IMG/VR virus record: IMGVR_UViG_3300010938_000012
Coordinates: 1 to 64,000 of that record
Strand: one strand, 5' to 3'
From: a virus
Length of the DNA stretch: 64,000 bases
Shown here: positions 5,427 through 41,501 of the stretch, piece by piece
Numbering within the stretch: the first letter of the stretch is position 1
Layout: each line of letters starts with the position of its first letter
Notes under the pieces: model-generated
Database searches by the model: none
Seen by the model: only the letters and a program-made list of their open reading frames with translations
What the model was told of the DNA's origin: nothing
Position numbers and translations under genes: made by a program

Positions 5427-5978
5427 TTATTCTGGCAGCGCTATTCCCGCAAACCCTGTCAATACCCTTCTAACGTGTAGAGGGTATTTGTAAACTGTAA
5501 ATGTTCCGGGGATGTTGTCAAGCACGACCCCCCTATGCGATGCTTCTTTAGTTGGGGAAGATAATGCCCTTGCGTCGAGGGAAGCCAACAGGTTGTGCGT
5601 GTCTGTGCCCCAAATACTGCCACCCCCTTTGAATAAAACTTGTTCAGGTGTTTTTGACACGGGGGTGAGTATTGTGTTTGTAAACTTTTGATTGACCCAC
5701 ACAAAATTTCCATTCAAATCTGTGTGCCACATAGCAAACGGTATATCTTCGGTAGAGCCTTCTAAGATTTTTACACGATTTTCAAGTTCTTTGTTCTCTT
5801 TCTCAAGGTCATCTATCTTTTTGTACAACCTTTGTATTTCTTCGTTCAATCTCTGGTTTATTGTGTCGAAGTCTGTCCTCTTCTCTTTTTTTACGTTTGT
5901 GTAATAATCAAGTACTTTAAAGACAGCTCCACCGCCCAATGCAGTTGCTCCATACTCAAGCATAGTTTGTATATCCAA
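5427..5978 (-). CDS. Holin-like N-terminus + coiled coil + PAS-like domain
   Basis: ATALGGGAVF hydrophobic segment, heptad repeats, then PFAMWHTDLNGNFVWVN...KYP..GFAGIA. SD GGAGG upstream. Confidence 0.6.
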   Translation of the reverse strand: MDIQTMLEYGATALGGGAVFKVLDYYTNVKKEKRTDFDTINQRLNEEIQRLYKKIDDLEKENKELENRVKILEGSTEDIPFAMWHTDLNGNFVWVNQKFTNTILTPVSKTPEQVLFKGGGSIWGTDTHNLLASLDARALSSPTKEASHRGVVLDNIPGTFTVYKYPLHVRRVLTGFAGIALPE

Positions 5979-6013
5979 AACCTTCCTCCTTTTAACTTTT
6001 TTACAAAGTCTTG

Positions 6014-6022
6014 TATAAATAT
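6014..6022 (-). promoter_or_regulatory. Putative late promoter ATATTTAT
   Basis: The same motif recurs upstream of late genes at 18997, 30079 and 39996, with a variant at 17123. Confidence 0.5.
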
Positions 6023-6099
6023 GTTAAAAAGAAGCCACTGCTCAACAATTTTAAATAAACAAACAAGTTAAAACATTGTTCACAATTAAGCATCCCATT

Positions 6100-6885
6100 T
6101 TACAGATATATAAATCTGCCCTTTTCTAATCTTGTTCTTATGTAAGTTATACTTTTTTTAAAATGAGTTGCTGCAACTTTTATAGACTCAAAAACTTCAC
6201 CAGTTTCTAAGTTTTTAATTTTTCTACTCCTTGCTTTACTTATTTTAAGTCTTGCTTCTTCTGAGTGTGTTTTTCCAAATAAAGGATGATTTATACCGGA
6301 TGTTAATCCCTTTCTATTTTTACTCATTTTTAAAATCGACTCTTCTTTATGATTCTTTCCAAACATTCCATTGTCAATACCTGTATTTGCTTTTGATATT
6401 TTTTGTTTAGTTGACTCTGACACTTCTTTTCCGTACATCGGATTTTTACTACCAATATTACTGCCTTTTCTAAGGTCGCTCATTTTTAATTTAGTTTTTT
6501 CGCTATGTTTATTGGTTCCATTTTTTATTTTTGTGGTTTTCATTTTATCAATAGATTCTGGTGTGAAAACTCTGCCTTTCATTGCTTTAGATAGTTTTTC
6601 TCTTAAATCAACAGGAGAATCTAACCACCTTTTTATATGATTTGCGGCATATATATTTCGTTTATATTCTATCGTGTTTTCTGAAAAACATTCAGCCAAT
6701 ATCAAATGAGCATCAAAATGGTCTTGATATGATAGTAGTATTATATTTTCTGCTTCATTACTTCCGCCCATGAATTTTGGTATTATATGGTGTCTGTGAG
6801 TATTAATGTTTGAATAATCTTTTAATGAGCATTCAGTCATAAAGCGACTATACTTTGTTATGTTAAATTCTTTGTATGTAATCAT
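6100..6885 (-). CDS. HNH homing endonuclease with NUMOD3 repeats
   Basis: HRHHIIPKFMGGSN..H..AH; repeated HSEETKxKMS / NPMYGK units. Confidence 0.85.
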   Translation of the reverse strand: MITYKEFNITKYSRFMTECSLKDYSNINTHRHHIIPKFMGGSNEAENIILLSYQDHFDAHLILAECFSENTIEYKRNIYAANHIKRWLDSPVDLREKLSKAMKGRVFTPESIDKMKTTKIKNGTNKHSEKTKLKMSDLRKGSNIGSKNPMYGKEVSESTKQKISKANTGIDNGMFGKNHKEESILKMSKNRKGLTSGINHPLFGKTHSEEARLKISKARSRKIKNLETGEVFESIKVAATHFKKSITYIRTRLEKGRFIYL

Positions 6886-6891
6886 GGTTAG

Positions 6892-8568
6892 TCAAGAGTC
6901 AAATTTTACTGTTATTGAAATATCCACGTCATCGCGCATTTGCAAAGGTTGACTCAATTTTGCTATGGCAACAAGTTCTCTCTTTTCGTTGTACAGCCCT
7001 ATCGCGGTCGCATAGGGAAATAGAGCGCCTTCGGCAAGGGAGCCTGTCATTTGGTCAATGATAAGGTCCGTGTACGGGTTTTTCAATGTGCTTGGGTTTT
7101 GAGACAGGTTAAAACTTCCGGCCGGTATCCTAACCAAACACTCATACGAGTAGATGACGTGTGTTGACCTAAATCTCAACGTCCAATCGCTCTCCATTAA
7201 ATCGCTGTAAGTTTTTGATGGAGAAGTCAGCACAATGTTGCCTGATTTATAGAACACGTTCCCAACTACGGCTGTCTGATACATGCCCATAGAAGAAGAG
7301 TCCGCCAAAGTTGTTACAGTAGACGGGGAAAGGCCTTTGTTGTATATCCTTATCTCGTCTAAGTGTCCAAAATACGCAGCGGTCTGGTCGAAATCGTCAG
7401 AGCCAAAAATCAGAGAGTGCTTATTGACCGGGTGCCCCTTTACCTCTTGTCCGCTCTGTACCGCAGCGCCGTCCTGATACATAGTAATCATAGAACCTGA
7501 CTTTACCGTGGCATAATGATGCCACCTGCCGTCACCTAAGTCAACAGAGCCGGACAATGTGAGCGTATTTATGCCATCGCTTCTGCTAAATCTTAGTATA
7601 TTTGAAATACCCTGTACTTCAAACCTGTATGGATATACTGGCGTAGTTAGCGCCTCTGTTGAAGAAGATACGTGGTATTGCTGTTGAACCAAATCATTTT
7701 GGTTGTATTTGTCAAGCAATCCATATACTTGTTTCTTTATTACGGTGTTCTTTGAAATAACGGTAGCGCTGTCGTTTCCGTGAGGCTCGTACTTCAACCA
7801 AAATGATATTGTAAAGTCATCATCTTTTGTAAAGTTAAAGTCATCTCTGTTGTCGGTGACAATGCTGCCCCCTCCATCAAAATAGGCGCAGAAACCGCTT
7901 GACGTGTTGTTCAAGGGCACTCCCGTACTGATACGTAAGCCCCTCGCCACCGAAGGCTCGTCCGGGGAAAACGTGTTTGACTTATATGGTATGGCCCTTT
8001 TTTCAAAAACAGCCCCCTCAATACTCTTTGCGCCCCTGAAAGAGTCGTTAAAGCCCCAGTACGCGACAAGGTTATAGTTGTCCGAATAAGACCCCGTACT
8101 TAAACCGGTGTCATATATGTTTCCGTTCTTGTCGTCTGTAAGATAGTATCCAGAGGCCGTAAACTCTACCGAACCCGGCTTAATCGATTCTCCGTAGTCG
8201 AGATACGGAACAGATATGATGGAAGCGCTCACTCCAAGATATTTGTACGTAAATCTTGGATTGGCGTGTTCAAGTGTCCTATATTTGTCGTATGGAAACC
8301 TGTAATACTGCGAATCTATGCTACTCCATACCACAGCCTTGTAAGAGCCGTCGAATGAGTTAGTCTGGTAAAGCTTTTGTGAGTCAGTTCCGAGTTTTAG
8401 TTTCCCCGATGGGTATGTCGCGCTCAAGAGTTTGTACCCACTTCCTGTTTGTGGCATTGAACCTGAATAGAACTGCGACCTACGCCACAAAAACTTCTTG
8501 TGAACTTTCACAGGGGTTAGCGTGAAGTCCTGTGGGTAAACAGTGCTATAAACGTGCGGTATTGCCAT
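6892..8568 (-). CDS. Virion structural protein with a LamG/ConA-like domain
   Basis: LVAYWGFND, FTISFW, WHH, GHLDEIRIYNK; C-terminal IGLYN..ELVAIAKLSQP shared with paralogs. Confidence 0.75.
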   Translation of the reverse strand: MAIPHVYSTVYPQDFTLTPVKVHKKFLWRRSQFYSGSMPQTGSGYKLLSATYPSGKLKLGTDSQKLYQTNSFDGSYKAVVWSSIDSQYYRFPYDKYRTLEHANPRFTYKYLGVSASIISVPYLDYGESIKPGSVEFTASGYYLTDDKNGNIYDTGLSTGSYSDNYNLVAYWGFNDSFRGAKSIEGAVFEKRAIPYKSNTFSPDEPSVARGLRISTGVPLNNTSSGFCAYFDGGGSIVTDNRDDFNFTKDDDFTISFWLKYEPHGNDSATVISKNTVIKKQVYGLLDKYNQNDLVQQQYHVSSSTEALTTPVYPYRFEVQGISNILRFSRSDGINTLTLSGSVDLGDGRWHHYATVKSGSMITMYQDGAAVQSGQEVKGHPVNKHSLIFGSDDFDQTAAYFGHLDEIRIYNKGLSPSTVTTLADSSSMGMYQTAVVGNVFYKSGNIVLTSPSKTYSDLMESDWTLRFRSTHVIYSYECLVRIPAGSFNLSQNPSTLKNPYTDLIIDQMTGSLAEGALFPYATAIGLYNEKRELVAIAKLSQPLQMRDDVDISITVKFDS

Positions 8569-8571
8569 ACA

Positions 8572-9867
8572 TTATACTTCGGTCGATAATTCTCTTTCAA
8601 GGTCGGAAATACCGGCATCTATCTTTTTTCCTTTTGACTGGATATGTGGTATAAACTTCCCAAAGAAGTTAACAATTTTGCCCCAAACACCGCCCACCCC
8701 TTCTGTGGTGAAGGACACGCTCGCTTTGACTTTTCCTATTTTTTCAACGGCTTTGAGCTCTGCTAAAATCTTGGCCTTAACGTCTTGGTTTACCCATTCC
8801 ATTATTTTATCAATAACTTGTTCGTATTGGTAAGTTATTGGAGATGCCTGATGTCTGTTTATCTTCATCACAAGCCTTTCCAACTTCAATATCCTCGTCC
8901 CGTCTTTTTTCAACTCCTCTAAGAAATCCCACAACTGCTCTTTAAGGATTTCATCGGCCCTTCTTTGAATTGTGTCGAAATTAGTATTTTTCTTTATAGC
9001 CTCTATTTGTGCTTGGGCTGCTGCGAGTTGCTTTTGGAGTTCGCTTAGTTCCGTCAAGGCATCATTAATCTTTTTAGTGATCTTTGGGGCTTCGGTCAAG
9101 CTTGTCTTTTTCTTTTTAAACGACTCTTGTTTCGGCGCAAACTCTCTGACATAAGCCATATCGCCTATGACAACCACATGTCCGTCTTTTTGTAGATTTT
9201 CGAGCGCTGCTTCTACCATATTGCCGCCGCCTTGTGCTTGTAAAGTCCTCTTCAGCGCATCAACCTTTGCCCCCCTATACTTACAACCATATAGGTAGTT
9301 TATGACTGACGACCTTGTGTCGTCGCTGTCGTAATCGGAAAAATCCTCGCCAACCCTCTTAATCTCTTTCCTTATAAGCCTTTTTATCGTTTCTTCGAGT
9401 TTTATTGTCTTTTCCTTTCCAAGGTCAATTTCCTTTGGCTTTTCAGTATCCGGCGTTTTCTCCCTTTTATTTGGTTTTGGAGGAGTTGCTGCATCTGGAA
9501 GTTTGGTTAATTGGCCGTCCTTATCTCCAACAACAGTAAACCCTTTCATCATAGCAGCGTGTTTGGCAAGCTCTATGGTCTCGAACCCTACATTGGTAAT
9601 ACACTCTTCCTTATTGTTGTCGAGTTGTAAATATAACCAGTAGGTGCCGCCCTCTTTCTTTATTTTTACATCAATGCTCCTGTTGTCAACACCCTCTGAA
9701 ATACGCCTTTTCAGCACTTTCTTTATAGAATTTAATTCTCTCTTTGTTAGTTTCATGGTTGATTCCATTGTAGTTTGCTTGTCCCATGACTCGTTATCGT
9801 CTGGGTTCGTTCCATTTTGTGCGCAATATGACTTTGTTAGAACATTTACCACTGCACTGCTATCCAA
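8572..9867 (-). CDS. Hypothetical multi-module (probable internal head) protein; true start probably 10003 across an A8 frameshift
   Basis: The frame stays open upstream (KDYKLYLVKNGKIIEGFEY). The ATG at 10003 joins it if the A8 run is read as A7. Confidence 0.65.
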   Translation of the reverse strand: MDSSAVVNVLTKSYCAQNGTNPDDNESWDKQTTMESTMKLTKRELNSIKKVLKRRISEGVDNRSIDVKIKKEGGTYWLYLQLDNNKEECITNVGFETIELAKHAAMMKGFTVVGDKDGQLTKLPDAATPPKPNKREKTPDTEKPKEIDLGKEKTIKLEETIKRLIRKEIKRVGEDFSDYDSDDTRSSVINYLYGCKYRGAKVDALKRTLQAQGGGNMVEAALENLQKDGHVVVIGDMAYVREFAPKQESFKKKKTSLTEAPKITKKINDALTELSELQKQLAAAQAQIEAIKKNTNFDTIQRRADEILKEQLWDFLEELKKDGTRILKLERLVMKINRHQASPITYQYEQVIDKIMEWVNQDVKAKILAELKAVEKIGKVKASVSFTTEGVGGVWGKIVNFFGKFIPHIQSKGKKIDAGISDLERELSTEV

Positions 9868-10057
9868 TTCGTTATTTTTTCTGTCAACGGCATCTTCCCT
9901 ATATTCAAACCCTTCTATTATTTTTCCGTTCTTAACAAGGTATAATTTATAATCTTTTTGGTTTATTTTTCTGATTGGCGCTTCCTTAACTTTTTTTTGG
10001 CATTAACTTTTCGACTCGTATTTTAACAATACCCCACTCTCTAAACTTAGCATTTTT

Positions 10058-10337
10058 TTATTTTAAACTATATTTTAAAGTGCTCATATCTATACCAAGT
10101 TGTCTCGATGCTAAGGTCACAATTCTTTTTTCGCGGTCATGGGCTTCCTTTCGATTTTGGCAATCTGCAATTATTTCTTTGGTAAAATTGTTTTTACCAT
10201 ACTTTTTAACCGCTTTCACAATGAGTGTCCCCTCCCATATAACCACCATTCAAGGTATTCGTCGAATGGATGCCTTAGTAGCATTTTCCGTTTACAAGAT
10301 TTGTTATCTTGTAGAAACAATTGTACTTCTTTTTCAT
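10058..10337 (-). pseudogene. Decayed GIY-YIG (Seg-like) homing endonuclease
   Basis: MKKKYNCFYKITNLVNGKCY*GIHST..YMG, then a frameshift into KAVKKYGKNNFTKEII. Confidence 0.8.
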
Positions 10338-10338
10338 G

Positions 10339-11946
10339 TTATTCGTATTTTAAATCTATTTGGATCAAAGCCTCGTCAACATAACTTTTTAAAATAGGCT
10401 TACTGATTTTACCGACTGCGAGCAATTCTTTGTTTTCGTTATATAAGCCTACTTGCGTGATGTAGACTTTTGGGTTTCCGTAGAAGTCATCAACAATTTG
10501 GCCTTCACTTCCCGTTCGGTAACTTGGATTGTTTGTGAAGTTGTATTCTCCGTTCTTAACCCGTATGAAGTATTGCTCTATATACTCGTATTTGACCTTT
10601 CTGGCTTGAAATCCGAGGTAATCGCCGCTTGCGTCTGTGTACAGGGCTGAACCTGACAATGAAGTGAACAATTTCATGGCATTGTCCCCAGCCACATCAC
10701 TTCCCGTCACTGTCAAGAAACTGGATGACATGTCAAGCAGGTCTGCATCGAGCAATATTACTCCGAGCCTTGGGTATGACAGGCCATAAACATGGGGTTG
10801 GGATTTGTTGTAAACACCGTCCTCAAGCGTACCGGACACTATGTAGTAAATCTCCCCCCCACGACCCACAAGACGGGCCTTTGATTCGCTTACGGTCTGA
10901 TAGAACCCCGCGTATGCTTCTGCTGACAATTCTGTCTCTACGTTCAGTTTGGAGTCGTCTATCAACCTTAAGATATTCCCCGCTGCTCCGAGCCTTACAT
11001 TAGAACCGGTGTGAGCGTTCCTGTTTCCGTTGCCGGCAAGGAATTGTGAGCCGGACAGCGCGTGAAGGTTTAACTCCAAGTTCCCCTCATCCAATCTGTC
11101 TCCGAACCTGTCTCTGTTTACGTCAATGGCATAGAAGTGGTTTATTATCTTAGAGCCTATCCTGAAATGTCTTTCAGTTGGGCTTAGACACAGGCTTCTG
11201 TATTGTCCATAAACTGCATTACTTGGGGACATCCAATCATATCCGCCCAAGTCCCTGCTTCCGCTTCCATCAATGTGCCCGTATGCAATGGAAAAGTGTT
11301 TATTTGGCGCGCAGTGAGAGTTGCATGGCGTTTGATAAACAGTCCTTCTATAGCTTTCGCTTGTTTCCGTACTGCAAGTGAAGTAAGTGACCATATTTCC
11401 TACCGCACCTCCGGTTGCGTCCTGCCAAATGCCATAGTAAACCTTGTTTACCTGTGTCGGCAGTTTGTCCCCTGTCGTTAGCCTCGTGTAGACTTTACCA
11501 GAAGCAATCTCGACAGGAGGCGCCGGTGGCGTTGGTATTATTGGCGGAACTGGCGCTGATGGCGGTGGAGGCGGCGGTGTTGGCGGGATTATCACAGGCG
11601 GCTCTGGCTGTGTTGGTGGCGGAGGTACTGGAGCTGTCAATTCCAACATTAAATCGTCATAGTTAACCCCTCCCCTATAATCGTCAGCCTGTACTTGAAA
11701 GACATATTGCCCATTTATGGTTTCTATATCTGTTCTTCTTATATTATTAGAACTTACCCACTGTATTCCGTCATATTCCTGAACATTTATAGCCCAACTT
11801 GTCCCCTGTACAAATATAGGAGCTGTGTAAGTATCCGGGTATGTGCCGTTACCTGTTATCGCACCCGTTATCACAAACCTCTGTGGCTGGTCAATCGGTT
11901 GCGTAATCAACCTTACTGTCCAATTACCCTGTATGCTTATTGGCAT
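10339..11946 (-). CDS. Virion structural protein: N-terminal beta domain, Pro-rich stalk, conserved C-terminal domain
   Basis: Paralog of 12474-14033 (PSxAxYGQY, DEGNLE, YITxVGLYN..LLAVGK). Confidence 0.7.
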   Translation of the reverse strand: MPISIQGNWTVRLITQPIDQPQRFVITGAITGNGTYPDTYTAPIFVQGTSWAINVQEYDGIQWVSSNNIRRTDIETINGQYVFQVQADDYRGGVNYDDLMLELTAPVPPPPTQPEPPVIIPPTPPPPPPSAPVPPIIPTPPAPPVEIASGKVYTRLTTGDKLPTQVNKVYYGIWQDATGGAVGNMVTYFTCSTETSESYRRTVYQTPCNSHCAPNKHFSIAYGHIDGSGSRDLGGYDWMSPSNAVYGQYRSLCLSPTERHFRIGSKIINHFYAIDVNRDRFGDRLDEGNLELNLHALSGSQFLAGNGNRNAHTGSNVRLGAAGNILRLIDDSKLNVETELSAEAYAGFYQTVSESKARLVGRGGEIYYIVSGTLEDGVYNKSQPHVYGLSYPRLGVILLDADLLDMSSSFLTVTGSDVAGDNAMKLFTSLSGSALYTDASGDYLGFQARKVKYEYIEQYFIRVKNGEYNFTNNPSYRTGSEGQIVDDFYGNPKVYITQVGLYNENKELLAVGKISKPILKSYVDEALIQIDLKYE

Positions 11947-11960
11947 TTATGTTCTCTTAT

Positions 11961-12246
11961 TTAATATGACCAAGAATCAACTTTAGCACCTTTTAGCCCG
12001 CTTGCCCCACATCTATTGGCAGTATTAGCCCCTAAAGTGTTTCCATAATTTCCTGAATATGTTACGCTCTTTCCGCTCTCGTCGTAATTGCCCACCTTAT
12101 ATTCAACCCATCTGACTACAACATTGTTGGGCAGTTCTTTTGGCCCCTTACCTGCCCCTCGAACCATTCATCTGATTTAAAGGACTGGGCAGGCTATTTT
12201 ATAGTGCGTTTTTTGTCATTGGTCTTACAACTTCAACTAGTTTCAT
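11961..12246 (-). pseudogene. Disrupted small gene with an MKLVE leader
   Basis: MKLVEVVRPMTKNAL*, then stops and a frameshift before the 68-aa ORF. Confidence 0.4.
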
Positions 12247-12450
12247 GTATTTACAGAAGGGTTTGATTGAAATCTAAGAACACGCCCACATTTCCTTGAG
12301 CAGGCGTTTTTGTTAGTTACATTTTCATTACATGTTGGACACAGTTTCCATAAAGGAGCGAAATCTGATACATTATTTTTTTAGATGTAGAGAAAATCCC
12401 CTTACTCCGAGATTTTCATCACATATTCTGCAAAGATGTTTTCCTGTTGG
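12243..12450 (-). pseudogene. Zn-finger relic of a homing endonuclease
   Basis: Startless frame HLCRICDE..LHLK..CPTC..CSRKCG. Confidence 0.5.
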
Positions 12451-12473
12451 TTATTTTTTATAGTTTTTCGTGT

Positions 12474-14033
12474 TTAAAACATTAACATTGAGGACAATAT
12501 AAATCCGATCCAAACAAATTCGAGTTTAAGCTTAATCAACGCCTCTTTTGTGAATTTCTTCTGTAATGGCTTGGACAACTTGCCCACTGCAAGCAAGTCC
12601 TTGTTGTCGTTGTACAACCCTACTGTTGTTATGTATGTTGTGGGGTCTCCGATCATAGTAGGTTCAGCCAAATCCCCCTCGCTTCCTGTGACAAATGTTG
12701 GGTTGTTTGTGAAGTTGTATTCTTGGTTTTTTACCCTCACGAAATAGTGAGTGGACTTGACCTTTTCACCACTCCTTCCTTGGAATCCAAGCCTGTCTCC
12801 GCTTGCGTCTGTGTACAAGGCTGAACCTGACAATGACAGGAATAGTTTATATGCGTTGTTTCCGGGGATTTCCGAACCTGTGACAGTCAGGAAGCTCGCG
12901 CTCATGTCCAACCTGTTTCCGTCGAGCACAATGACACCTAACCTTCTGTAAAGTTTGCCATAATAATGCGGCGCTGAACTGTTGTAAACACCGTCCTCAA
13001 GTGTGCCGGACACTATATTATAGACCTCTCCGGCTGTTGTCACATCTGCCGAAGCAATTCTACTGTCATCAATTAATCGGGTTACTGCTTGTGTCGGGAA
13101 CACTCTTACATTTGAACCTGTCCACGCATTTTGCGCCCCGCCGCCAGCAAGCCACTGTGAGCCGCTCAATCTCTGTAAGTTTATCTCAAGGTTTCCCTCA
13201 TCAATAAACTCCCGCATACGCGCCCTATTTACGTTTATCACATAGATAGAATCCGTCGCTTTTCCGCCAATTGTGAACCTTTGTTCGTCCGCCTCAAGGC
13301 ACAGTTGCTTGTACTGCCCATAAATTGCACGGCTTGGGGTATCGTTTATCTGCCCCCCCTCATCTGCTGAACCAGACCCCTGTTTGTGCCCCCACGCTAC
13401 GGAAAACTGCGGCTCACTTCCACACTCACCACTACCAGAGTTGTATATTTCGTAATAATACCTCTGCTGTGTGGCATTTTGTCCAGAAGACGTGTGGAAC
13501 GTCAACAAGTTGGATACGTTACCTGACCACAATGCGCGAGTAATTGTTTCCTGCTGGTTTGGGACAATGTCCCCTGCCTCGAACCTTGTCCATATCCTGC
13601 CCGACCCAAGATTGTTTGGCGGCAACGGGGCTGGGTACGTTGGGCTTGTTGGGACGATTGGCGGCACTGCCCCGCCTCCGCCCGTATCCCTTGGAGGAGG
13701 CGCAAAATCTCTTATAGGGGGAAACAAACCCCCACCTGTCTGCGGCTTTACTCCGCCTGTATCAATAGATGGGCCCGTTGGTACAACGTTGTGTACAACA
13801 TTGTTCTCGTCCAGCACCAAAAAATTACCTTTTGGGGTTTCAAATCCCGCAACAGAAACTCCGGGCATTATTTGCTTATTTACTGGTTGGGTGTTTTGCA
13901 ACACAGACGGGTCGTTAGACACGGGTACAAGCGTTATTCCCGCCTCCTCTATTTTAGCCTTTTGAGACTCGTCTACCTTTTGAACAGTTCCGCTCGACCC
14001 GGCTGCTGCCATCCCTTTTTGTATAAATGCCAT
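12474..14033 (-). CDS. Virion structural protein (paralog of 10339-11946)
   Basis: Pro/Gly-rich linker; YFVRVKNQEYNFTNNP..YITTVGLYN..LLAVGKLSKP. Confidence 0.75.
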   Translation of the reverse strand: MAFIQKGMAAAGSSGTVQKVDESQKAKIEEAGITLVPVSNDPSVLQNTQPVNKQIMPGVSVAGFETPKGNFLVLDENNVVHNVVPTGPSIDTGGVKPQTGGGLFPPIRDFAPPPRDTGGGGAVPPIVPTSPTYPAPLPPNNLGSGRIWTRFEAGDIVPNQQETITRALWSGNVSNLLTFHTSSGQNATQQRYYYEIYNSGSGECGSEPQFSVAWGHKQGSGSADEGGQINDTPSRAIYGQYKQLCLEADEQRFTIGGKATDSIYVINVNRARMREFIDEGNLEINLQRLSGSQWLAGGGAQNAWTGSNVRVFPTQAVTRLIDDSRIASADVTTAGEVYNIVSGTLEDGVYNSSAPHYYGKLYRRLGVIVLDGNRLDMSASFLTVTGSEIPGNNAYKLFLSLSGSALYTDASGDRLGFQGRSGEKVKSTHYFVRVKNQEYNFTNNPTFVTGSEGDLAEPTMIGDPTTYITTVGLYNDNKDLLAVGKLSKPLQKKFTKEALIKLKLEFVWIGFILSSMLMF

Positions 14034-14058
14034 TTATTTTTCCTATTTTGTGTTGATA

Positions 14059-25366: not shown

Positions 25367-25367
25367 A

Positions 25368-32589: not shown

Positions 32590-32667
32590 AAAAAACCTCC
32601 TACATATTTCCAGTTTAAAAACTTTGGACTAATATTTAAAATTCTTTCAGAAACTAACTTCATCGTA

Positions 32668-32751: not shown

Positions 32752-32752
32752 G

Positions 32753-33151
32753 TCATTCATCTGACACAGGGCTGCCGTGAACCTCTCTCGCTTGTCGGGC
32801 CTGTTCCATGAGCATCTTTCTTTCATCTACTGAAATTAAACTATCATCGAGGCCGGAATCTTTAGCCTTTGCGTTTTTAATTCTTTGTACGATAGCGGCC
32901 ATCTTCACCAACATGTCGTCATTAGCAATAGCGGCCTTATGCATATCAACCAATATGGGCATCATAACTACCATGTCATTAAGTGTCTTTGTTAAAGACA
33001 TTATCCTCTCCGCTGTGGCAGCTATGTTATGGTTCTTCTCTTCCGCATTTACATAAATCTTCTTTAAGAGGTCTTCAAACCCCACTTCCTGCCCGTCATC
33101 CAGCGTAAACAAGGGAGTCGAACTGTTCTGCGATTTCTTCGTGTATTTCAT
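32753..33151 (-). CDS. Hypothetical helical protein
   Basis: FEDLLKKIY..NDDMLVKMAAIVQR; start uncertain. Confidence 0.6.
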   Translation of the reverse strand: MKYTKKSQNSSTPLFTLDDGQEVGFEDLLKKIYVNAEEKNHNIAATAERIMSLTKTLNDMVVMMPILVDMHKAAIANDDMLVKMAAIVQRIKNAKAKDSGLDDSLISVDERKMLMEQARQAREVHGSPVSDE

Positions 33152-33857: not shown

Positions 33858-33864
33858 CTCTTCG

Positions 33865-34212
33865 TTATTTTTCAGTTTTTACCTCCTGTTCGATTTCAAC
33901 CGAACCAAGCCTTTCCTTTAAGGAAGCAATTGCGGCTAATATTACTCTGAAAGCGAAACCAACTTCGTCATCAGAGCTAAAACTTCCGCGCTTGTCAACT
34001 CTTTGGAGCTCTTGGTAGGTTTGCGTTAACAATTCGAGAAAGTATTTGTGGTACTTTATCGCTTCATCTTCTACTGACTCTATCTTGTTTGAGTAAATCT
34101 CTAAATTTTCATTCAGAGTGTCGTTTTGTTTGAGCAGGTTTCTTATCGCAACCCCCATAACAATAACTAAGATTGTCAGAACGGACACGATTGCTGCCAG
34201 TAACGTTACCAT
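33865..34212 (-). CDS. Membrane-anchored coiled-coil protein
   Basis: N-terminal TM segment; SD AGGAGG. Confidence 0.7.
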   Translation of the reverse strand: MVTLLAAIVSVLTILVIVMGVAIRNLLKQNDTLNENLEIYSNKIESVEDEAIKYHKYFLELLTQTYQELQRVDKRGSFSSDDEVGFAFRVILAAIASLKERLGSVEIEQEVKTEK

Positions 34213-34221
34213 TAAACCTCC

Positions 34222-35001
34222 TTATTCCATTTCTTTGAAGACCTTTGCAAACAGGTCGAGATGTTGTTTGTTTGCTGTTGCGACCGGTGCGGCGACCGTT
34301 TTGTGTCGTGGATCAGCAGAACCGTTATACAAGTCAAACTTACCTGTTGCTATAGCCCACTTTTCAAACTCACAGCGCGCTGCCATCAAATCGGCGTGGT
34401 GTAGTATCATTCCGATAGTGTTCCTCAACTTCTTTTCGAGTTCGTATGAAATAAGATAAGTTTTGTTGTTCTCATTGTACAGCCCATCAGTCAACTGAAT
34501 AGCAATTTGTTCATTTTCGGAGTACGGAATCCTATAATGGTTAAGCAAATATAATGTCCTGTCTGTGGTCTCCATGTGTACAAGGTTAGGGTTTATTTGG
34601 TAAACCTTGCCTTGGTTCTTTCTGTGCCACTCGCTGTTGTTCTTTTGGTACAACTCCCTGTTGTCTCCCGGCATACCTAACTTTCCGAGGTCGTGGTGTA
34701 TTGCGGCGAACGAGAGTTCTTCAAGTGTGAAGTTGTCGACCACCATGCCAGAAGACTTCCATAATTCGTAGTGAGCAAGTGCGTTTTTATAAACCCTCAA
34801 AACGTGGTCTATGTATCCGCCGGGAATTGCATTGTGGAAGTAATCGATTGTAGATGCGGGGGCCATAACAATCCTTGGCTCAAGTTCATCGTACATCCTG
34901 TTCATTTCTACTTTGCGGCTGGGCGATATTTCGTTTACAATATCTCTGAAAGTTTCCCAGTTGCGTTTGATCTGTTGTGCGGTAAGCAAATAATCTGCCA
35001 T
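34222..35001 (-). CDS. HD-domain phosphohydrolase
   Basis: HNAIPGGYIDHV, HHDLGK, LHHAD. Confidence 0.85.
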   Translation of the reverse strand: MADYLLTAQQIKRNWETFRDIVNEISPSRKVEMNRMYDELEPRIVMAPASTIDYFHNAIPGGYIDHVLRVYKNALAHYELWKSSGMVVDNFTLEELSFAAIHHDLGKLGMPGDNRELYQKNNSEWHRKNQGKVYQINPNLVHMETTDRTLYLLNHYRIPYSENEQIAIQLTDGLYNENNKTYLISYELEKKLRNTIGMILHHADLMAARCEFEKWAIATGKFDLYNGSADPRHKTVAAPVATANKQHLDLFAKVFKEME

Positions 35002-35079
35002 TATAATGTAATGTTGTGGTTTAGTTCAATTTTGTTTCTTTTGAAAGGGTTTTGTTCGTTCTTTTTTGGTGCTGTCATT

Positions 35080-35613
35080 TTATAATTGTTCTATTTTTAT
35101 CCCAAGTTTTTCAAGTTCTGCGAGCGGTAGAAGGTTTCCTTCGTTCAGTTTCCAATAATCGTCAACAAACCTTTGCATAAACCTTTTATAAGAGTCTGGT
35201 TTTTCAAGTAGGTTATTCAAAGTGTCGTGAAGTTTTGTTTTTGAATACTGTACTTGGCAGGACTTATTTACGTAAACCATGTTCTGAATGAACAAGTGGA
35301 TGAAGTCAAAGTGAATTATGCCCCTAAAAACTATCGTAGTTCGTTGTGTGAGGTCTTTTATGTAGTCGGCGAGCAAACCCGCGTCTTTTGACGGGACGTT
35401 GCCACAGACCAAATATAGCGTAAATTCAAAGTCATCAGGTTTGTCCTTCAAAAACTCTCGAACCCTTGAGGTCATAGAGTATAAAGTCTCTGGCTCTGAC
35501 AGGTTCAACTCAAGTACATTTCCGTATTCTTCTTGGTCTGGATTTATGTATTTGGTTGAAGTACCTGTTGTTGTGCGCCTGTCCTCCTCTTCGTATAAGT
35601 TAAACGGCTTCAT
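35080..35613 (-). CDS. Hypothetical protein, possibly a degenerate ClpP fold
   Basis: Pattern-level resemblance only (FTLYL..G, LADYIK, LPLAELEKLGI). Confidence 0.4.
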   Translation of the reverse strand: MKPFNLYEEEDRRTTTGTSTKYINPDQEEYGNVLELNLSEPETLYSMTSRVREFLKDKPDDFEFTLYLVCGNVPSKDAGLLADYIKDLTQRTTIVFRGIIHFDFIHLFIQNMVYVNKSCQVQYSKTKLHDTLNNLLEKPDSYKRFMQRFVDDYWKLNEGNLLPLAELEKLGIKIEQL

Positions 35614-35674
35614 AGATTATCCCTTTCCCATGCTCTTATTTCTTGATGGGACATTATTTTCCTTTGAGAATCGG

Positions 35675-36835
35675 TTAGTCTTTTTTTTTACTGAGGCTGT
35701 CTGACAGATGTGCTGCTAAATCTTCTGGGAGGCCCATTTCGACCACTTTTCTTTTCCTTGGCTTCTTAGGGTTTTCTGGTTTTTGCTCTTCGATAGGCGC
35801 AACTTCGACAGGTGTTTCGATAGTGGCGAAGTTATCACCGGGTTCGAGCCCTTCTATTTGAATGTCGAAGGTTTTTGGATAGCCCATTTCTGTGTCATCC
35901 GGTACTTTCTTCTCTCGCTTTCTCTTCTGCTTTCGTACCTTTGCGAACTCTTCTGCTCCATTAGCCTCATTAACTGATATAGGCTCTGTTTGAACTATTG
36001 GTTCTTGTGTATCCTCTGGTCTTACACCATCCTTCCTGCCAAATGCGAACAATGCAGCAAGTATTAAGGCAACAGCAAGCGGTTGAAATACTACCATAAT
36101 CAAGAGTAAAAACACATTGACCACGACATCCATCCCATACCCAGTTAAATTGGAGACGTATTTCAAAGCACCAAGTTCAACCGCTACATCATTGTTAGCC
36201 TGAACTTCTATTATTTTTATCTCGTATGTCGAAACGGAATCATTAAGCCTGTCTATCTTTTCAGACAGTTCATCGCTTTTTAAAGTCGAAACATCAAGTT
36301 GCGCCTTTACGCCTTTCTTTGGAGTAGAATGGATCTGGGTGAGAACGTTTCCGTTTCTATCAACTGTCTGATATTGGTTGTCAGTTGACAATGATTTTCT
36401 CAATGCAGAGATGGAAGTATTAATTTCGTCCCTTTCCTTCTTTAAATCTAAAACTTGTAACTCAAACCTCTCTTTCTTCTTCTTGAGAAGGTCTGATTTG
36501 GCTTGAACAACCTTGTCTTTGTTGTTGGTCATTTGGTAACCGTCAGACAAAAAGCCATAAATACCAATGGAAGTGATGATAGAAAGTATAACAACTGCAG
36601 AGCACAGGTAGTTTCTGAGCGATTTTGGCAAATCGTCCCAATAAAGTTTAAGAGACGACGCAGTGACGATGTTACCAAATTCCAATGCAAATGCCATAAC
36701 GATAGCGCCGATGTGGTGCCCTGCAAAGATTTTACCGATTCCGTAAATTGAATAGTAAGAGCCCGTAACAGACACAAGTATGGCTGAAAACGCAATGACG
36801 TATGGAAAAACCTTGCGGAGTTGGTTCATGGGCAT
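35675..36835 (-). CDS. Multi-pass membrane protein with a long coiled coil
   Basis: Three N-terminal TMs, TSIGIYGFLS, coiled coil, VFQPLAVAL TM, charged tail. Confidence 0.75.
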   Translation of the reverse strand: MPMNQLRKVFPYVIAFSAILVSVTGSYYSIYGIGKIFAGHHIGAIVMAFALEFGNIVTASSLKLYWDDLPKSLRNYLCSAVVILSIITSIGIYGFLSDGYQMTNNKDKVVQAKSDLLKKKKERFELQVLDLKKERDEINTSISALRKSLSTDNQYQTVDRNGNVLTQIHSTPKKGVKAQLDVSTLKSDELSEKIDRLNDSVSTYEIKIIEVQANNDVAVELGALKYVSNLTGYGMDVVVNVFLLLIMVVFQPLAVALILAALFAFGRKDGVRPEDTQEPIVQTEPISVNEANGAEEFAKVRKQKRKREKKVPDDTEMGYPKTFDIQIEGLEPGDNFATIETPVEVAPIEEQKPENPKKPRKRKVVEMGLPEDLAAHLSDSLSKKKD

Positions 36836-36993
36836 AGAATGGGGAATATTAACAATACTATATTAAACTTAATATTGTTAATTGTAGTTACAAAACACAT
36901 TTTCGAGCAGTAGCCTGCTCTCAATGGAGCGAAATTAAAAATTTCGCTCGTACCTTGGTTCTTGTTATTTTTTTATAAAATTAATAATAAGCG

Positions 36994-37024
36994 CAAAGTT
37001 ACAAGAAATTTTTGACATCTGCAA
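36994..37024 (-). promoter_or_regulatory. Bacteroidota-type promoter
   Basis: TTG-N20-TAACTTTG. Confidence 0.7.
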
Positions 37025-37098
37025 GCTTTTGTCAAGTAAATACGAGTTAACGATGTGTTAAAGATTGTAAGTGTGGTGTTTTTTGGCCATATTAAAGC

Positions 37099-37150
37099 AA
37101 AAAAGCCGCTTATGCGCGGTTGCACAAGCGGCTTGGTTTGTTTTTTGTTT
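37099..37150. terminator. Probable intrinsic terminator (possibly bidirectional)
   Basis: AAGCCGCTT..AAGCGGCTT stem flanked by A and T runs. Confidence 0.55.
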
Positions 37151-37155
37151 TTGGT

Positions 37156-37410
37156 TTAAAGCCCGAATCGGTACTTTTGGTAGAATATCACCTTTGCGTT
37201 TTGGCAGGTTTCGATGATCCTATCCAACTCTGCCAACGTGCATTCAAACTCCTTTCCTCCGATTAGGAGTTTTCCTGCCCTTGTATCCATCCTCTTTGCT
37301 TCGAGGACTGCTTGGGAGATTGAGTTTACTTCAAAATCTATTGACCCAAAATAGTTTCCAAATTTCTTTACTTTGTTTTGGTCAATCGCGTGCCGATTAT
37401 TAACGCTCAT
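37156..37410 (-). CDS. Hypothetical protein
   Basis: ORF in operon. Confidence 0.65.
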   Translation of the reverse strand: MSVNNRHAIDQNKVKKFGNYFGSIDFEVNSISQAVLEAKRMDTRAGKLLIGGKEFECTLAELDRIIETCQNAKVIFYQKYRFGL

Positions 37411-37421
37411 ATAAGATTAGT

Positions 37422-38117
37422 TTAGTTGTAACCGCCAATATGGACAGTCAACTTGTAAATATCTTGAAGCCTTGTATAATCTACTGTAAACCTTGTGTTG
37501 TCGGGCACATTTTGGAACAACTCGCTGAACGGATAATCTAAAAAACCTTCCATCGAGTCCATATTTGACGCTAATACGAAAATAATCGCTCGTTTTGTGG
37601 TGTTTATTGCGTGGTTTAAAGTTTTGTTAAAAACTTCCCACTTATCTTGTCCGTGGTCTTCGTTCAATGTCCCTATGCAGATTGTGTAGTCTGTAACCAA
37701 GTCGGAAGTGAGGTAGTCTTGTTGTATTAGATTCAGGTTTTCATATTTCTGTTTTCCTGCCAACACCAGACTATCCTTTGCTTCAAATCCCGTGTATGTG
37801 GGGATGGGGGATGTGGCAAGTGGTCTTCTGAAAACTAAATGTCCGTAAAAATCGCCCCTCCCTGCGCCGAGGTCTTTTATTGAATATATGCCTCCCATAG
37901 GCAAATCTTCTGCAACCCAGTTGTATATCAACTGTTGCATTTCTGCGGACGGGTATCCCACAACCTCCGGGTCGTTGACCAGATAGTCTGGTAGTTTTAA
38001 ATCCAACGTCCCCTCTTCTCTGTCCTGAACAGTTTCCTTCAACCCTTTGCTTGTATGTTGTGTTGGCGCGTCGTTTGTTGGTGAAGTTTTCTTATTCAGC
38101 AGGTCTTCTAATTTCAT
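37422..38117 (-). CDS. Class I SAM-dependent methyltransferase
   Basis: IKDLGAGRGDFY, YTGFE, DYTICIGTLN. Confidence 0.7.
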   Translation of the reverse strand: MKLEDLLNKKTSPTNDAPTQHTSKGLKETVQDREEGTLDLKLPDYLVNDPEVVGYPSAEMQQLIYNWVAEDLPMGGIYSIKDLGAGRGDFYGHLVFRRPLATSPIPTYTGFEAKDSLVLAGKQKYENLNLIQQDYLTSDLVTDYTICIGTLNEDHGQDKWEVFNKTLNHAINTTKRAIIFVLASNMDSMEGFLDYPFSELFQNVPDNTRFTVDYTRLQDIYKLTVHIGGYN

Positions 38118-38322
38118 TCTTTCGCTTGTTTAGTTTTTCGGACAGTTCTATGAGTATGTGAAAAGGTTTTTCTATGTCCTCGGTTACATTTTCCATCAAG
38201 TGCCCCCTTTCAAGATATATGTTGTAGTAAACTACTCCTTTTCTCTTAAATCTTTTTTGAACTACTCCAACTTCCTTGCGCCCTCTATTGGACACGACGG
38301 CTATCATGTTTGCTTTTATCAT
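38092..38322 (-). CDS. Small hypothetical (SH3-like) protein
   Basis: ORF in operon. Confidence 0.55.
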   Translation of the reverse strand: MIKANMIAVVSNRGRKEVGVVQKRFKRKGVVYYNIYLERGHLMENVTEDIEKPFHILIELSEKLNKRKNEIRRPAE

Positions 38323-38350
38323 TTTGTTATTTTTTGTTATTTTTTTGTTA

Positions 38351-39304
38351 TTACAGGGAAAGTATTAAATCAATAACGCCGGGCTGGGGGGTTATGTCCC
38401 ATTTTTCATAATCTCCATACTTGTTTTTTGGTGAAACGTTTGTATGTGCAAACAGTCCCTTTGCTTTTCCGGACACAATGTTCGGGTCATAGTCAAAAGC
38501 GGCAAATGGGCCTGTCTTTTTTATTCGTTCTTTCAACCCTTGAGTGATGTCTATTCCGGTTTCCGTTGAGATTTTTACAATTAAAAACTTCAAAGAATTT
38601 AACTGGGATTCCGTGTATTTGTGGAAGTATCTAAATCCCCTAAACTCTTTGCCCAAGTCGCAAACCTCGGAAGGGTTTACGATCGGGCCTTTGCCCGGAA
38701 CGATTTTACCTTTTGAGTCAAGGCTAACGTAAGTCTTGAAATCGTTGCCATCTTTTAAAAGCCACCCAAAGTTGCAGACCTCTATACCTATGCTTGCCCT
38801 GTGAACAACCGTATTTCCAATGCCCAAGTGCCAGCCATAATTTTTATGGCTGGGGTAGCATTGGACAATCTTACCGTCATGTTTTGAATCCAATGTTTGA
38901 AGGTGCCTGCCGCCTATGACATATTGTGCGCCCACTTTTCCCCTTGTGTCTGACTCCCACGAATCGACCACAGCAAAAGGATTGTTCCACCCGGCTGTGT
39001 GGTGTAAAAACAACCACTCTTTCTTTTCACCTGTCGTATAATATTCGTCAGGTTTTAATAAGTATTTGCTTATTGTATGAGATACTTCGCTTAAATCGGT
39101 AGTGATTAGCCCTTCTTTGCTGTTTTTAAATAACAGTTCTTTCGTAGCGTTATCAACTGCCCCTGTAACCGGTATCTTGTTCTTCTGCTGGAAGTTTCTT
39201 ATAGCCGCTTCCGTAAACTCGTCATACTCTCCAGTTAGCGGTACGTTCAACGCTTGCTGAACTTCTTTTGTTTCTGCCGTTGTCATCCATATCTCCTTAT
39301 ACAA
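38351..39304 (-). CDS. Endolysin: peptidoglycan-binding domain + amidase_2
   Basis: VQQAL..G.YDEFTEAAIRNFQ..TG.VD; LHHTAG, SIGIEVCN, HTNV, KWD. Confidence 0.85.
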   Translation of the reverse strand: MYKEIWMTTAETKEVQQALNVPLTGEYDEFTEAAIRNFQQKNKIPVTGAVDNATKELLFKNSKEGLITTDLSEVSHTISKYLLKPDEYYTTGEKKEWLFLHHTAGWNNPFAVVDSWESDTRGKVGAQYVIGGRHLQTLDSKHDGKIVQCYPSHKNYGWHLGIGNTVVHRASIGIEVCNFGWLLKDGNDFKTYVSLDSKGKIVPGKGPIVNPSEVCDLGKEFRGFRYFHKYTESQLNSLKFLIVKISTETGIDITQGLKERIKKTGPFAAFDYDPNIVSGKAKGLFAHTNVSPKNKYGDYEKWDITPQPGVIDLILSL

Positions 39305-39977
39305 GATATTTTATATTTCTAACCTTGAAAGCCTGTTTGCTTATGTTGTTAGTCGGTTTAAGGACACCTTCAAACACAAAAGGGACGCTTTTTTTGCTTC
39401 TCATCTGTGAATACGCTTGCGATACTTTCCCTATCGTAAGGCTGTTTCCTATCTTGTCCATACTTCCATCTTTGTATACAAGGTATATGCCCGGTTGTGG
39501 GTCTTTTGTGTCGTCTTCTTTTGCTCCGCCAGCAAATGTAAACCCTTTGCTGTTGAATTTGACATCATCAGAAACGAGACCGACTAAAACAGCGTCTTGG
39601 TTGAACTTCCGACCTATGTCGCCGCAAAAGCCTATAAAATCTCTCTTTGACATATCCTCTGGCCTTGTGAACAATACTGATTCCTCCACAGAGTCTTGCA
39701 AAGTTTCCGGGTCTGCATCTTTATATTCTACTCCGTCAGGCGCTTCCTGCCAGTGCCCGATCAAAGAGTACCCTCCCATCTTTTTTGAGGCAAGGGTAGA
39801 ATTAAGTTCTTTGTTTAACTGTCTATTTTGTTGCAAGGTGTTTCCATATCTGAAACCGGTGGCTATGCAAAAGTCTCTTTTACTTGCCATGTTTAAAAGC
39901 CTTGACAAACTGGCCTCACATATAGCCCCTATCCTGCCTGTCGTAATTTCTTGATAAACGTCTTTTAGTCTTAACAT
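39297..39977 (-). CDS. Hypothetical (probable internal virion) protein
   Basis: RLKDVYQE leader, EASLSRL, EES, KFNQDAVL; late motif and SD upstream. Confidence 0.65.
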   Translation of the reverse strand: MLRLKDVYQEITTGRIGAICEASLSRLLNMASKRDFCIATGFRYGNTLQQNRQLNKELNSTLASKKMGGYSLIGHWQEAPDGVEYKDADPETLQDSVEESVLFTRPEDMSKRDFIGFCGDIGRKFNQDAVLVGLVSDDVKFNSKGFTFAGGAKEDDTKDPQPGIYLVYKDGSMDKIGNSLTIGKVSQAYSQMRSKKSVPFVFEGVLKPTNNISKQAFKVRNIKYLV

Positions 39978-40017
39978 AATCTCTCCGTATTTTTATATAA
40001 ATATCTGTAAAAAATAA

Positions 40018-40515
40018 TTAAGGAAGCGCTTGTAGCAGCGCGCCGCTCCAAGGAGAAACAACTCCGGGAACAACGCTCGAAACATATTGACCTGTCAAAG
40101 TCATAATATGGGTTCTGAAACAAGTTACCATCATGTTTAGCATGATGTTGAAATCAAGGTTCTGAACCACGGGTACGCCTACCCATGTGCCCGGACTTAG
40201 CACTGTCACGACCCCAGTAGGCCCGGTGATGACAATCCCTGTCCAATACGAGAGTATGAAAGGCCCAATTTGATTCAGTATGTGCACTTCGCTTTGAGAC
40301 GCAAGGTTGGCGTTACATTGTGCCAGTATCTGTTGATTCAGTATGGGAAACTTGGGAGCGTTGTTAATTATAGTGCCGCCCGCTGTCATGGTGTCAAAAT
40401 GTAACGATACGGCCTGATGGTAGGCATCAGAGATAGTCTGGGCAAACTGTGGCACTGATATGTGCTGTTGCCCAGTTAATACCATACATTTTGTCTTAAA
40501 CAGACTCCAAGACAT
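40018..40515 (-). CDS. Hypothetical virion-associated protein
   Basis: ORF in late module. Confidence 0.6.
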   Translation of the reverse strand: MSWSLFKTKCMVLTGQQHISVPQFAQTISDAYHQAVSLHFDTMTAGGTIINNAPKFPILNQQILAQCNANLASQSEVHILNQIGPFILSYWTGIVITGPTGVVTVLSPGTWVGVPVVQNLDFNIMLNMMVTCFRTHIMTLTGQYVSSVVPGVVSPWSGALLQALP

Positions 40516-40569
40516 TATTTATTCCCTCGGATAAACCGCTTGGTTTTGGTATTTTTACTTTTGTCGTTG

Positions 40570-41256
40570 TTAAAAGTCTTTGCGGTTAGGGTCTGCCACA
40601 GAAATTACGTCAAGTTTAATTTCGTGAGTTAGCGTTTCGTTTAGGTGTACCCCTCCCTTTATGAACATTTGACCCGAATACTCACAGTTTGTGCATTGGG
40701 CGTTTTGTGTAACCTCTGCTTGGTCTTTAAGTACGCAGTTGTCTATTATAGACTCTTTGTTTACACGAGAGCCGTGAAACATTTTAGAGTTCGTTACTGT
40801 CGATTTTCCATTTACGCGCGCTGCGTTATGGAGATATGAGCTGTTTACGACCGAAAAGCCAGATACGTCAACATTATCTCCGACAAAGCTGTCCCTGACA
40901 ATTGAAGAGCCAAAAACCCTTGCCCGTCCGGCAACGGTAGAGTTTGTTACAGTAGCATTGTCACACACCTTTGCGCCCTCAAGAACAACCGAGTCGTGCA
41001 GCACTGCGTTCTCAAACACGTGCGCTGTGTTGAATACCCAACTATTGTCATCTTGAGGAAGGTTCGCCTCTGATTGAACGAACCCCCCAATCTCCCCTTC
41101 CTTTACGATTATCTTCCTGTCCACATATCCGTTCCTCTCCGACCCTTTTATAACCACCTCGAATGTTTTCAAGGCGTAAATTTTAAATACTTTAACGGGC
41201 AACCCTTTTGTTCCCGTAATCTGGCTGTATTCCCCTGTCAGTAGCTTATACTTCAT
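40570..41256 (-). CDS. Left-handed beta-helix (hexapeptide repeat) protein
   Basis: GGFVQSEANL..WVFNTAHVFENA repeats. Confidence 0.75.
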   Translation of the reverse strand: MKYKLLTGEYSQITGTKGLPVKVFKIYALKTFEVVIKGSERNGYVDRKIIVKEGEIGGFVQSEANLPQDDNSWVFNTAHVFENAVLHDSVVLEGAKVCDNATVTNSTVAGRARVFGSSIVRDSFVGDNVDVSGFSVVNSSYLHNAARVNGKSTVTNSKMFHGSRVNKESIIDNCVLKDQAEVTQNAQCTNCEYSGQMFIKGGVHLNETLTHEIKLDVISVADPNRKDF

Positions 41257-41501
41257 TCACATCTCCTAAATGAGTGTTATTTGTGCCAACACATAAGCCA
41301 ACTATATGTTGAGCATAGGCACTGTTGACAATATTATCAGCACCGTTATGGCTGTTGCTGAATATTTAACTCAAAAATCCCTACTGTTGACCAGCCTACA
41401 ATCGTCTATGTTTGGGTACGTTTTAACAAGGCAAGTCAACAGCAAGGATATGAAAGGTGGCGCAAGGTGCGTCGAGCACATTGTCACCTGTGGTGTGTGC
41501 A

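Follow-up and report, generated by a model that had tools for sequence, protein, structure and literature searches.

The window analysed here, positions 1 to 64,000 of the IMG/VR virus record IMGVR_UViG_3300010938_000012, raises the question of why a phage that probably infects Bacteroidota places Shine-Dalgarno (SD) sequences in front of one part of its genes and not of another, and which factor would let ribosomes read them. This window covers the first 64 kb of a linear contig of 99,024 bp (here called G000), which has a GC content of 42.5%, is estimated by CheckV to cover ∼54% of the genome and carries all of its ∼139 called genes on the minus strand. Bacteroidota ribosomes are the only well-studied case of a structurally hidden anti-SD. 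In Flavobacterium johnsoniae the 3′ tail of the 16S rRNA is held by the ribosomal proteins bS21, bS18 and bS6, with Tyr54 of bS21 stacking on A1534 (PMC7797042), and ribosomes without bS21 translate the SD-led rpsU mRNA at a higher rate (PMC9976891).

A preliminary description of the window had proposed that late genes between 5.4 and 41.3 kb are SD-led whereas early genes have SD-less, A-rich leaders, and that the phage may free the anti-SD late in infection, with no effector identified in the window. We confirm the SD observation in G000, with a boundary that is not simply early versus late, and find that across 127 related loci the presence of a phage-encoded bS21 and SD use go together almost without exception. 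The window belongs to a large myophage from a lineage with bS21 in its head-gene block. Overall, the proposed interpretation is partly supported.

SD motifs mark a subset of the G000 genes

Gene starts were called from coding potential, start-codon type and overlap with a home-made caller that never used the SD. A gene was scored as SD-led if GGAG, GAGG or AGGA ended 4–13 nt before its start, and six shifted pseudo-starts per gene served as control. Such a motif precedes 19 of 44 genes (43%; control 10%) between 5.4 and 41.3 kb and 3 of 37 (8%; control 7%) between 41.3 and 64 kb, so that the proposed enrichment of late over early genes holds (Fisher p = 4e-4); against all other G000 genes it gives p = 0.004. 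The signal is strongest between 16 and 41.3 kb, where the share reaches 55% (control 12%), the anti-SD duplex has a dG of ≤−6 kcal/mol at 48% of starts, and AGGAG, GGAGG or AGGAGG precedes 13 gene starts. The share is 9% (control 6%) for the fibre genes between 5.4 and 16 kb, zero for the five genes below 5.4 kb, and 28% (control 10%) in the off-window part from 64 to 99 kb. Spacers to the start measure 4–14 nt, mostly 5–9 nt, and the GGAG offsets cluster at −16 to −9. When anti-SD pairing was computed for each gene class, as had been suggested, the SD-poor classes were found to pair more weakly than control positions (mean dG −1.5 vs. −2.75 between 41.3 and 64 kb).

All 13 leader strings on which the proposal was based were found on the minus strand, at or beside the positions reported for them, although the start at 23484 opens an open reading frame (ORF) of only 20 aa and the AGGAG assigned to 39304 belongs to the ATG at 39286. 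Several short or neighbouring ORFs, including the one at 23484 and those at 26943, 27752 and 25366, open with MKLK behind an SD. A-rich leaders are found in all regions of G000 (A = 0.43–0.46 in the last 15 nt vs. 0.33 strand-wide); the genes between 41.3 and 64 kb have 0.46 and the late leaders a nearly equal 0.43.

A chance or compositional artefact, arising from a purine-rich coding strand and uncertain start calls, would have something to build on, as the sense strand has, overall, 2.8 times as many GGAG as the antisense strand and the starts come from our own caller. We consider it extremely improbable. The shifted positions in the same regions give only 7–12%, the positional peak is sharp, and more than 120 related loci of similar GC repeat the pattern. 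Agreement also comes from counting, irrespective of start calls, each AGGAG or GGAGG that is followed by a start codon at the 5′ end of a gene, with 0.38 sites per gene between 16 and 41.3 kb, 0.08 between 41.3 and 64 kb and 0.19 between 64 and 99 kb, against an antisense null of 1–3 sites per region.

The split in translation signals is therefore real, but it does not separate strictly early from late genes: fibre genes are SD-poor, and lysis and enzyme genes carry SDs. The proposed late range contains tail, baseplate and lysis genes together with some enzymes (an HD hydrolase, a ParB-like nuclease and an HNH endonuclease by PHROG matches), and is thus not a purely virion block.

SD use follows bS21 across related phages

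IMG/VR contains 80 relatives of the gp6-like baseplate wedge protein of G000. Head-module loci were collected in two scans around the capsid gene, which yielded 160 of them, out of ∼580 capsid relatives. Of these we compared 127, namely 55 with bS21 and 72 that lack it and extend at least 3.5 kb upstream of the gene for the major capsid protein (MCP). In the 55 bS21-bearing loci SDs precede 12–70% of genes (mean 48%, control ∼6%), and in the 72 bS21-less loci 0–20% (mean 6.5%, equal to the control), with almost no overlap between the two ranges. GC content does not explain the difference, because the backgrounds are alike and the two groups overlap in GC.

Whole records behave in the same way. 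SDs are found on 0–4% of genes in every module of G003 and G008, both without bS21, and on 3–5% in the cultured, complete and bS21-less Flavobacterium phage immuto. In the structural modules of G002, G005, G007 and the bS21-bearing cultured phage Mel-JY01 the share is 31–55%; in Mel-JY01 it is 55% for structural genes and ∼25% for the others. At single genes, the MCP leader contains AGGAG or GGAG in G006, G007 and Mel-JY01 and is made up of A/T alone in G008, G003 and immuto. The gp6-like gene is SD-led in G000, G005, G001, G002 and Mel-JY01 and SD-less in G003 and immuto. Orthologues of the G000 gene starting at 32589 likewise carry an SD in G005, G002 and Mel-JY01. The bS21 gene itself has an SD-less leader in 50 of 59 cases.

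On the MCP tree the absence of bS21 requires at least three changes, each of them concordant with loss of the SD. One bS21-less and SD-less clade (L116–L119, G008) is nested in a well-supported clade together with G001 and G006.

Two further observations concern individual genes of these relatives. One of the strongest SD sites of G001 (TAGGAGG, dG −10.2) precedes a UvsX-like recombinase gene (L087:15618-16802), and SD use is thus not confined to structural genes. A 75-aa ORF that occupies the bS21 slot in immuto was rejected as a bS21, since it encodes an acidic product without a match to the bS21 profile.

A bS21 gene is predicted beyond the contig end

The preliminary description had identified no effector in the window. 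A search for bS21, bS18 and bS6 homologues over the whole 99-kb contig, which lacks the head module, was also without result. A PF01165 match at 88.7 kb is noise, being interrupted by 4 stops and scoring 13.9 bits.

Among relatives, the complete genome G001 as well as G002 (153 kb), G006, G007 and Mel-JY01 have a bS21 that exceeds the Pfam cut-off. G001 measures 171.9 kb, has terminal repeats and encodes bS21 between portal and MCP. The G000 segment from 41 to 6 kb corresponds to 136–160 kb of G001, and the last G000 gene matches G001 at 165–168 kb; this puts the expected start of the head block just past window position 1. The nearest contig to span this junction is the 28-kb G006, whose genes are 60–79% identical to the left-end genes of G000 and which continues into TerL, portal, bS21 (78 aa, 35.6 bits; L197:5907-6143), scaffold and MCP. 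The leader of the G006 bS21 gene is A-rich and SD-less, and those of scaffold and MCP contain AGGAG. Among the relatives bS21 lies ∼1.1–2.8 kb upstream of MCP and on the same strand in 56 of 80 MCP loci. From this gene order we infer that the G000 phage carries bS21 ∼15 kb beyond window position 1. The bS21 in the head module of relatives is thereby a concrete candidate for the effector that is missing from the window.

Promoter boxes provide an independent label of gene classes

Two types of promoter-like box allowed the genes to be sorted independently of their leaders. The first, ATATTTAT, lies 13–22 nt before many structural-gene starts in relatives, and the motif ATATTTA[TC] occurs in G000 in 16 sense and no antisense copies. 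The second, of which TACCTTTG is an example, follows the form TAnnTTTG. With TTG or TTTG ∼20 nt upstream, this form is the Bacteroidota sigma-A pattern (Bayley et al. 2000; Chen et al. 2007). The early promoters of G000 and G005 combine a conserved GTTAATGG box with cTTG(ACA) at about −33 and TAnnTTTG at −7 (window 4776-4820 and 43228-43270).

All three G000 genes behind ATATTTAT have an SD, compared with none of the eight behind TAnnTTTG. Taking seven genomes of bS21-bearing lineages together gives 37/73 and 14/74 (p = 6e-5); three bS21-less genomes have 0/30 and 0/33.

The frequent occurrence of the motif at a fixed short distance after ATATTTAT in G002 could mean that GGAG does not bind ribosomes at all. 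It might instead belong to the late promoter or the initial transcribed region, mark RNA-processing sites, as the GGAG in early mRNAs that is targeted by RegB of phage T4 does, or be a relic from a phage of an SD-using host. We regard all of these as very unlikely. The spacing is fixed to the start codon (4–13 nt, GGAG at −16 to −9), the motif is also present at internal operon genes without a promoter box, and bS21-less relatives have retained the ATATTTAT box while the motif is gone. As for a relic, the motifs persist at orthologues of G000 and G005 despite a GC content at third codon positions (GC3) of 0.46 vs. 0.23.

Phage bS21 and a possible translational switch

To compare the proteins, 59 phage bS21s were aligned with bS21 of Porphyromonas gingivalis (9I5V), which is also the best solved match of the phage bS21 profile, by a narrow margin. 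The position of Tyr54 is Arg or Lys in 30 of 55 loci and aromatic in 25, the G000 lineage included. The C termini fall into two types, one with Tyr or Phe at this position and one with Arg or Lys and a basic tail. All phage bS21s have an N-terminal extension of 15–46 residues, which is absent from two aligned cellular bS21s and in which the pattern KKF...G..G.KV is frequent.

A phage bS21 that lacks Tyr54 and is thus unable to mask the anti-SD was considered as a general switch and rejected, given the 25 aromatic loci and the equal SD use of the two groups. As Tyr and Arg/Lys types use SDs alike (0.46 vs. 0.49), loss of Tyr54 is not the switch. The co-occurrence of bS21 and SDs fits the proposal that the anti-SD is freed late in infection; simple unmasking by a defective bS21 does not fit, since Tyr54 is kept.

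Our best explanation, which we hold tentatively and put somewhat short of an even chance, is that G000 derives from a bS21-lineage phage whose off-contig bS21 re-tunes host ribosomes towards SD-led late mRNAs. Phage bS21, by itself or jointly with a linked factor, would enter host 30S subunits during infection and make the normally sequestered anti-SD usable, upon which SD-led late mRNAs would outcompete host and early mRNAs. The early genes and the bS21 gene, with their SD-less leaders, would be readable by unmodified ribosomes. A more specific version appears to us a shade more doubtful: phage bS21 and late-gene SDs would be the trans and cis halves of a temporal translation switch in which Tyr54 is kept and the change has to come from another feature, perhaps the N-terminal extension. 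What the comparison of genomes shows is the co-occurrence; that phage bS21 frees the anti-SD is our inference from it.

Several observations weigh against this explanation. The bS21 of G006, G001 and G002 retains Tyr54, and SDs are used to the same extent with either C-terminal type. No bS21 is present on G000 itself, and its presence is predicted from relatives that are only 60–79% identical. The tree offers only three independent contrasts, which all point in the same direction (sign test p = 0.25). Gene timing was read off function and promoter type, and the SD does not form a clean temporal code, with fibre genes lacking it and ∼28% of the genes between 64 and 99 kb having it. Finally, the closest cultured bS21-bearing relative, Mel-JY01 (PP395634), is recorded on Microcystis.

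The retained Tyr54 is easier to reconcile with functional SDs that are made readable by something other than phage bS21. Infection could yield ribosomes that are poor in bS21 or otherwise have a free anti-SD, for instance because host rpsU is shut off or a different phage factor acts, with bS21 and SDs simply inherited together and phage bS21 playing a different or even opposing role. In this case the lineage bS21, by sequence a masking rather than an unmasking protein, is accounted for, and F. johnsoniae ribosomes without bS21 do translate SD-led mRNA better (PMC9976891). However, relatives without bS21 would then gain from SDs too, and no such use is seen in the 72 bS21-less loci and a complete cultured genome. 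Nor were bS18 or bS6 homologues found in G000 or its relatives, in a search that did not include other translation factors. We consider this combination unlikely.

If the bS21 explanation is true, this would be a rare case of a virus that changes ribosomal mRNA selection by swapping one ribosomal protein: SD-blind Bacteroidota ribosomes would become SD-reading, and the translation machinery would pass to virion mRNAs. Ever since bS21 was recognized as the ribosomal protein most widely encoded by viruses, its role in phages has been an open question, and if late-gene SDs appear only with the phage's own bS21, the protein gets a testable job. The G000 window alone is worth less, as the effector is off the contig.

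Host of the G000 lineage

A Bacteroidota host, as assumed in the preliminary description, is plausible: TTG/TAnnTTTG promoters precede SD-less genes of G000 and are strongly enriched in G005. Enrichment was scored as the −7 box in upstream windows, and gave 40% vs. 8% in G005, 41% vs. 3% in G008, 23% (16/70) vs. 5% in Mel-JY01, 15% vs. 4% in G007 and 10% vs. 4% in G000; the box is enriched in G006 as well. TTTG at −33 is twice as frequent at upstream −7 boxes as at other copies of the motif (p = 7e-4). This score replaced a count of the composite TTTG-N17-22-TAnnTTTG, which is uninformative, being zero in immuto, a true Flavobacterium phage; that G001, G002, G003 and immuto lack the box is thus no evidence against a Bacteroidota host. 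The cultured relatives immuto (vB_FspM_immuto, MW353176) and Mel-JY01 are 39% and 46.5% identical, respectively, in the baseplate protein, and their capsids are 51–54% identical to that of G001. Neither the epimerase query nor the bS21 alignment revealed a relative among genome contigs.

SD use might instead simply follow the host, the bS21-bearing phages infecting SD-reading bacteria (non-Bacteroidota or atypical Bacteroidota) and SD strength scaling with the need for expression. It is common for phages to equip abundant virion proteins with stronger SDs, and the cultured relatives conform, with the bS21-bearing, SD-rich Mel-JY01 recorded on Microcystis and immuto, which has neither bS21 nor SDs, on a proven Flavobacterium host. 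In phages of SD-using hosts, however, genes behind host-type promoters and the small-gene block would not lie at or below the SD background as they do here. TAnnTTTG is enriched in the bS21-bearing lineages G005, G007 and Mel-JY01 and in the bS21-less sister G008 alike, and the sharing of Bacteroidota-type promoters by sister clades with and without bS21 weakens an explanation by host phylum. The nesting of a bS21-less, SD-less clade among bS21-bearing phages on the capsid tree and the match of the bS21 profile to P. gingivalis, narrow as its margin is, point in the same direction. We therefore judge a host-driven pattern to be improbable, while still deserving consideration. Phages of the G000 lineage probably infect Bacteroidota, judging from these sequence comparisons, and the Microcystis assignment of Mel-JY01 may deserve a second look in view of its Bacteroidota-like boxes, its family and its bS21.

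The closest relative, G005 (the record of L004), shares 76–94% amino acid identity with G000 over tail and baseplate genes (window 12474-33857). Besides the GC3 values given above, the whole-contig GC of the two differs (42.5% vs. 33.2%), and this large synonymous shift may reflect hosts of different GC.

Comparison with known systems

The closest described phages are the bS21-encoding myophages of freshwater Bacteroidetes, whose bS21 has been suggested to give late structural mRNAs an advantage (Chen et al. 2022, ISME Commun 2:31, PMC9723584). Like G000 and its relatives they are large myophages with a proposed Bacteroidota host and sugar-chemistry genes, their bS21 lies within the TerL-portal-MCP block (seen here in relatives), and it mostly keeps an aromatic residue at the Tyr54 position, as in the G000 lineage. 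They differ in that bS21 is on the opposite strand to the head genes there and on the same strand in the relatives of G000; moreover, that study contains no SD analysis of phage genes, and G000 itself shows no bS21. The cis-element side, with SDs on late genes and none on early ones, is new relative to that study. Full-text searches of the literature returned no paper linking SD-led late genes with a phage bS21, and the later papers on F. johnsoniae bS21 do not mention phages.

The autoregulation of bS21 in F. johnsoniae (Jha et al. 2020, PMC7797042; McNutt et al. 2023, PMC9976891) likewise involves ribosomes with a masked or a free anti-SD, an mRNA preference that depends on the SD, and bS21 as the switch component, as would be the case here. 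There, however, the anti-SD becomes free when bS21 is missing, and essentially a single gene (rpsU) has a strong SD, whereas here an added phage bS21 would have to free it for dozens of genes. In Francisella tularensis, swapping the bS21 homologue on the ribosome alters which mRNAs are translated (PMC9578407). Unlike the phage case, the F. tularensis system consists of cellular paralogues in a Gammaproteobacterium, with no tie to phage timing or anti-SD sequestration.

In phage T4, late genes are transcribed from TATAAATA promoters, RegB cleaves early mRNAs at GGAG, and all gene classes use SDs. G000 resembles T4 in having an AT-rich late box, here ATATTTAT, near late-gene starts and the SD as a temporal discriminator. 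It differs in that the SD step of T4 removes early mRNAs, while in G000 what separates the classes is whether they have an SD. Of the two cultured relatives, immuto is without bS21 and has few SDs, and Mel-JY01 has bS21 and is SD-rich.

Gene content and other features of the contig

Features of the window are listed in Table 1. Myovirus structural genes are represented by the gp6-like and gp25-like wedge proteins in the window and by sheath, portal, MCP and TerL in the syntenic G001. Megablast of 12 kb of G000 against cultured phage genomes gave no match.

Table 1. Position of SD sites, promoter-like boxes, gene blocks and selected genes in the window
Feature	Position	Strand	Remark
AGGAG	41263..41267	-	6 nt before ATG 41256
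AGGAG	39293..39297	-	6 nt before ATG 39286 (amidase/endolysin)
AGGAGG	34217..34222	-	4 nt before ATG 34212
AGGAGG	32596..32601	-	6 nt before ATG 32589
GGAGG	30054..30058	-	9 nt before ATG 30044 (gp6-like baseplate wedge)
AGGAG	22808..22812	-	6 nt before GTG 22801 (1264-aa protein)
AGGAG	18987..18991	-	7 nt before ATG 18979
AGGAG	17112..17116	-	9 nt before ATG 17102
AGGAGG	5985..5990	-	6 nt before TTG 5978
ATATTTAT, late-promoter-like box	39997..40004	-	19 nt before ATG 39977
Further ATATTTAT copies	30080-30087, 18998-19005, 6015-6022		
TACCTTTG, Bacteroidota-type −7 box	43228..43235	-	TTTG upstream; before SD-less ATG 43197
Boxes similar to TACCTTTG	46961-46968, 4776-4783		
SD-rich block	16189..41267	-	Baseplate genes, amidase/endolysin, many genes without family match (PHROGs and SD statistics)
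SD-poor small-gene block	41300..60369	-	A-rich leaders, host-type promoters; 8% SD core, as background (SD statistics)
SD-poor stretch in the proposed late range	6100..15966	-	Fibre and wedge-like genes, HNH gene; 9% SD core
gp6-like baseplate wedge protein	28158-30044	-	PHROG match
gp25-like baseplate wedge protein	30312-30776	-	PHROG match
Wedge-like fibre protein	6892-8568	-	PHROG match
Amidase/endolysin	38351-39286	-	PHROG match
Last gene before contig end	164..1801	-	Partial counterpart of the ∼1040-aa gene preceding the TerL-portal-bS21-MCP block in relatives

The contig-end gene (window 164-2774) matches only part of a gene of 1023–1054 aa that is intact in G001, G005 and G006. In L192 the counterpart of this gene is split by an inserted reverse-strand ORF, which suggests a mobile insertion or rearrangement at the contig end of G000.

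Ten tRNA genes lie between 60.4 and 63.4 kb of the window. The off-window part of G000 encodes sugar-nucleotide enzymes and contains two gene-free stretches, at 73148-74071 (0.9 kb) and 75806-77825 (2.0 kb), as well as a run of 20 N at ∼83.4 kb that breaks an ORF.

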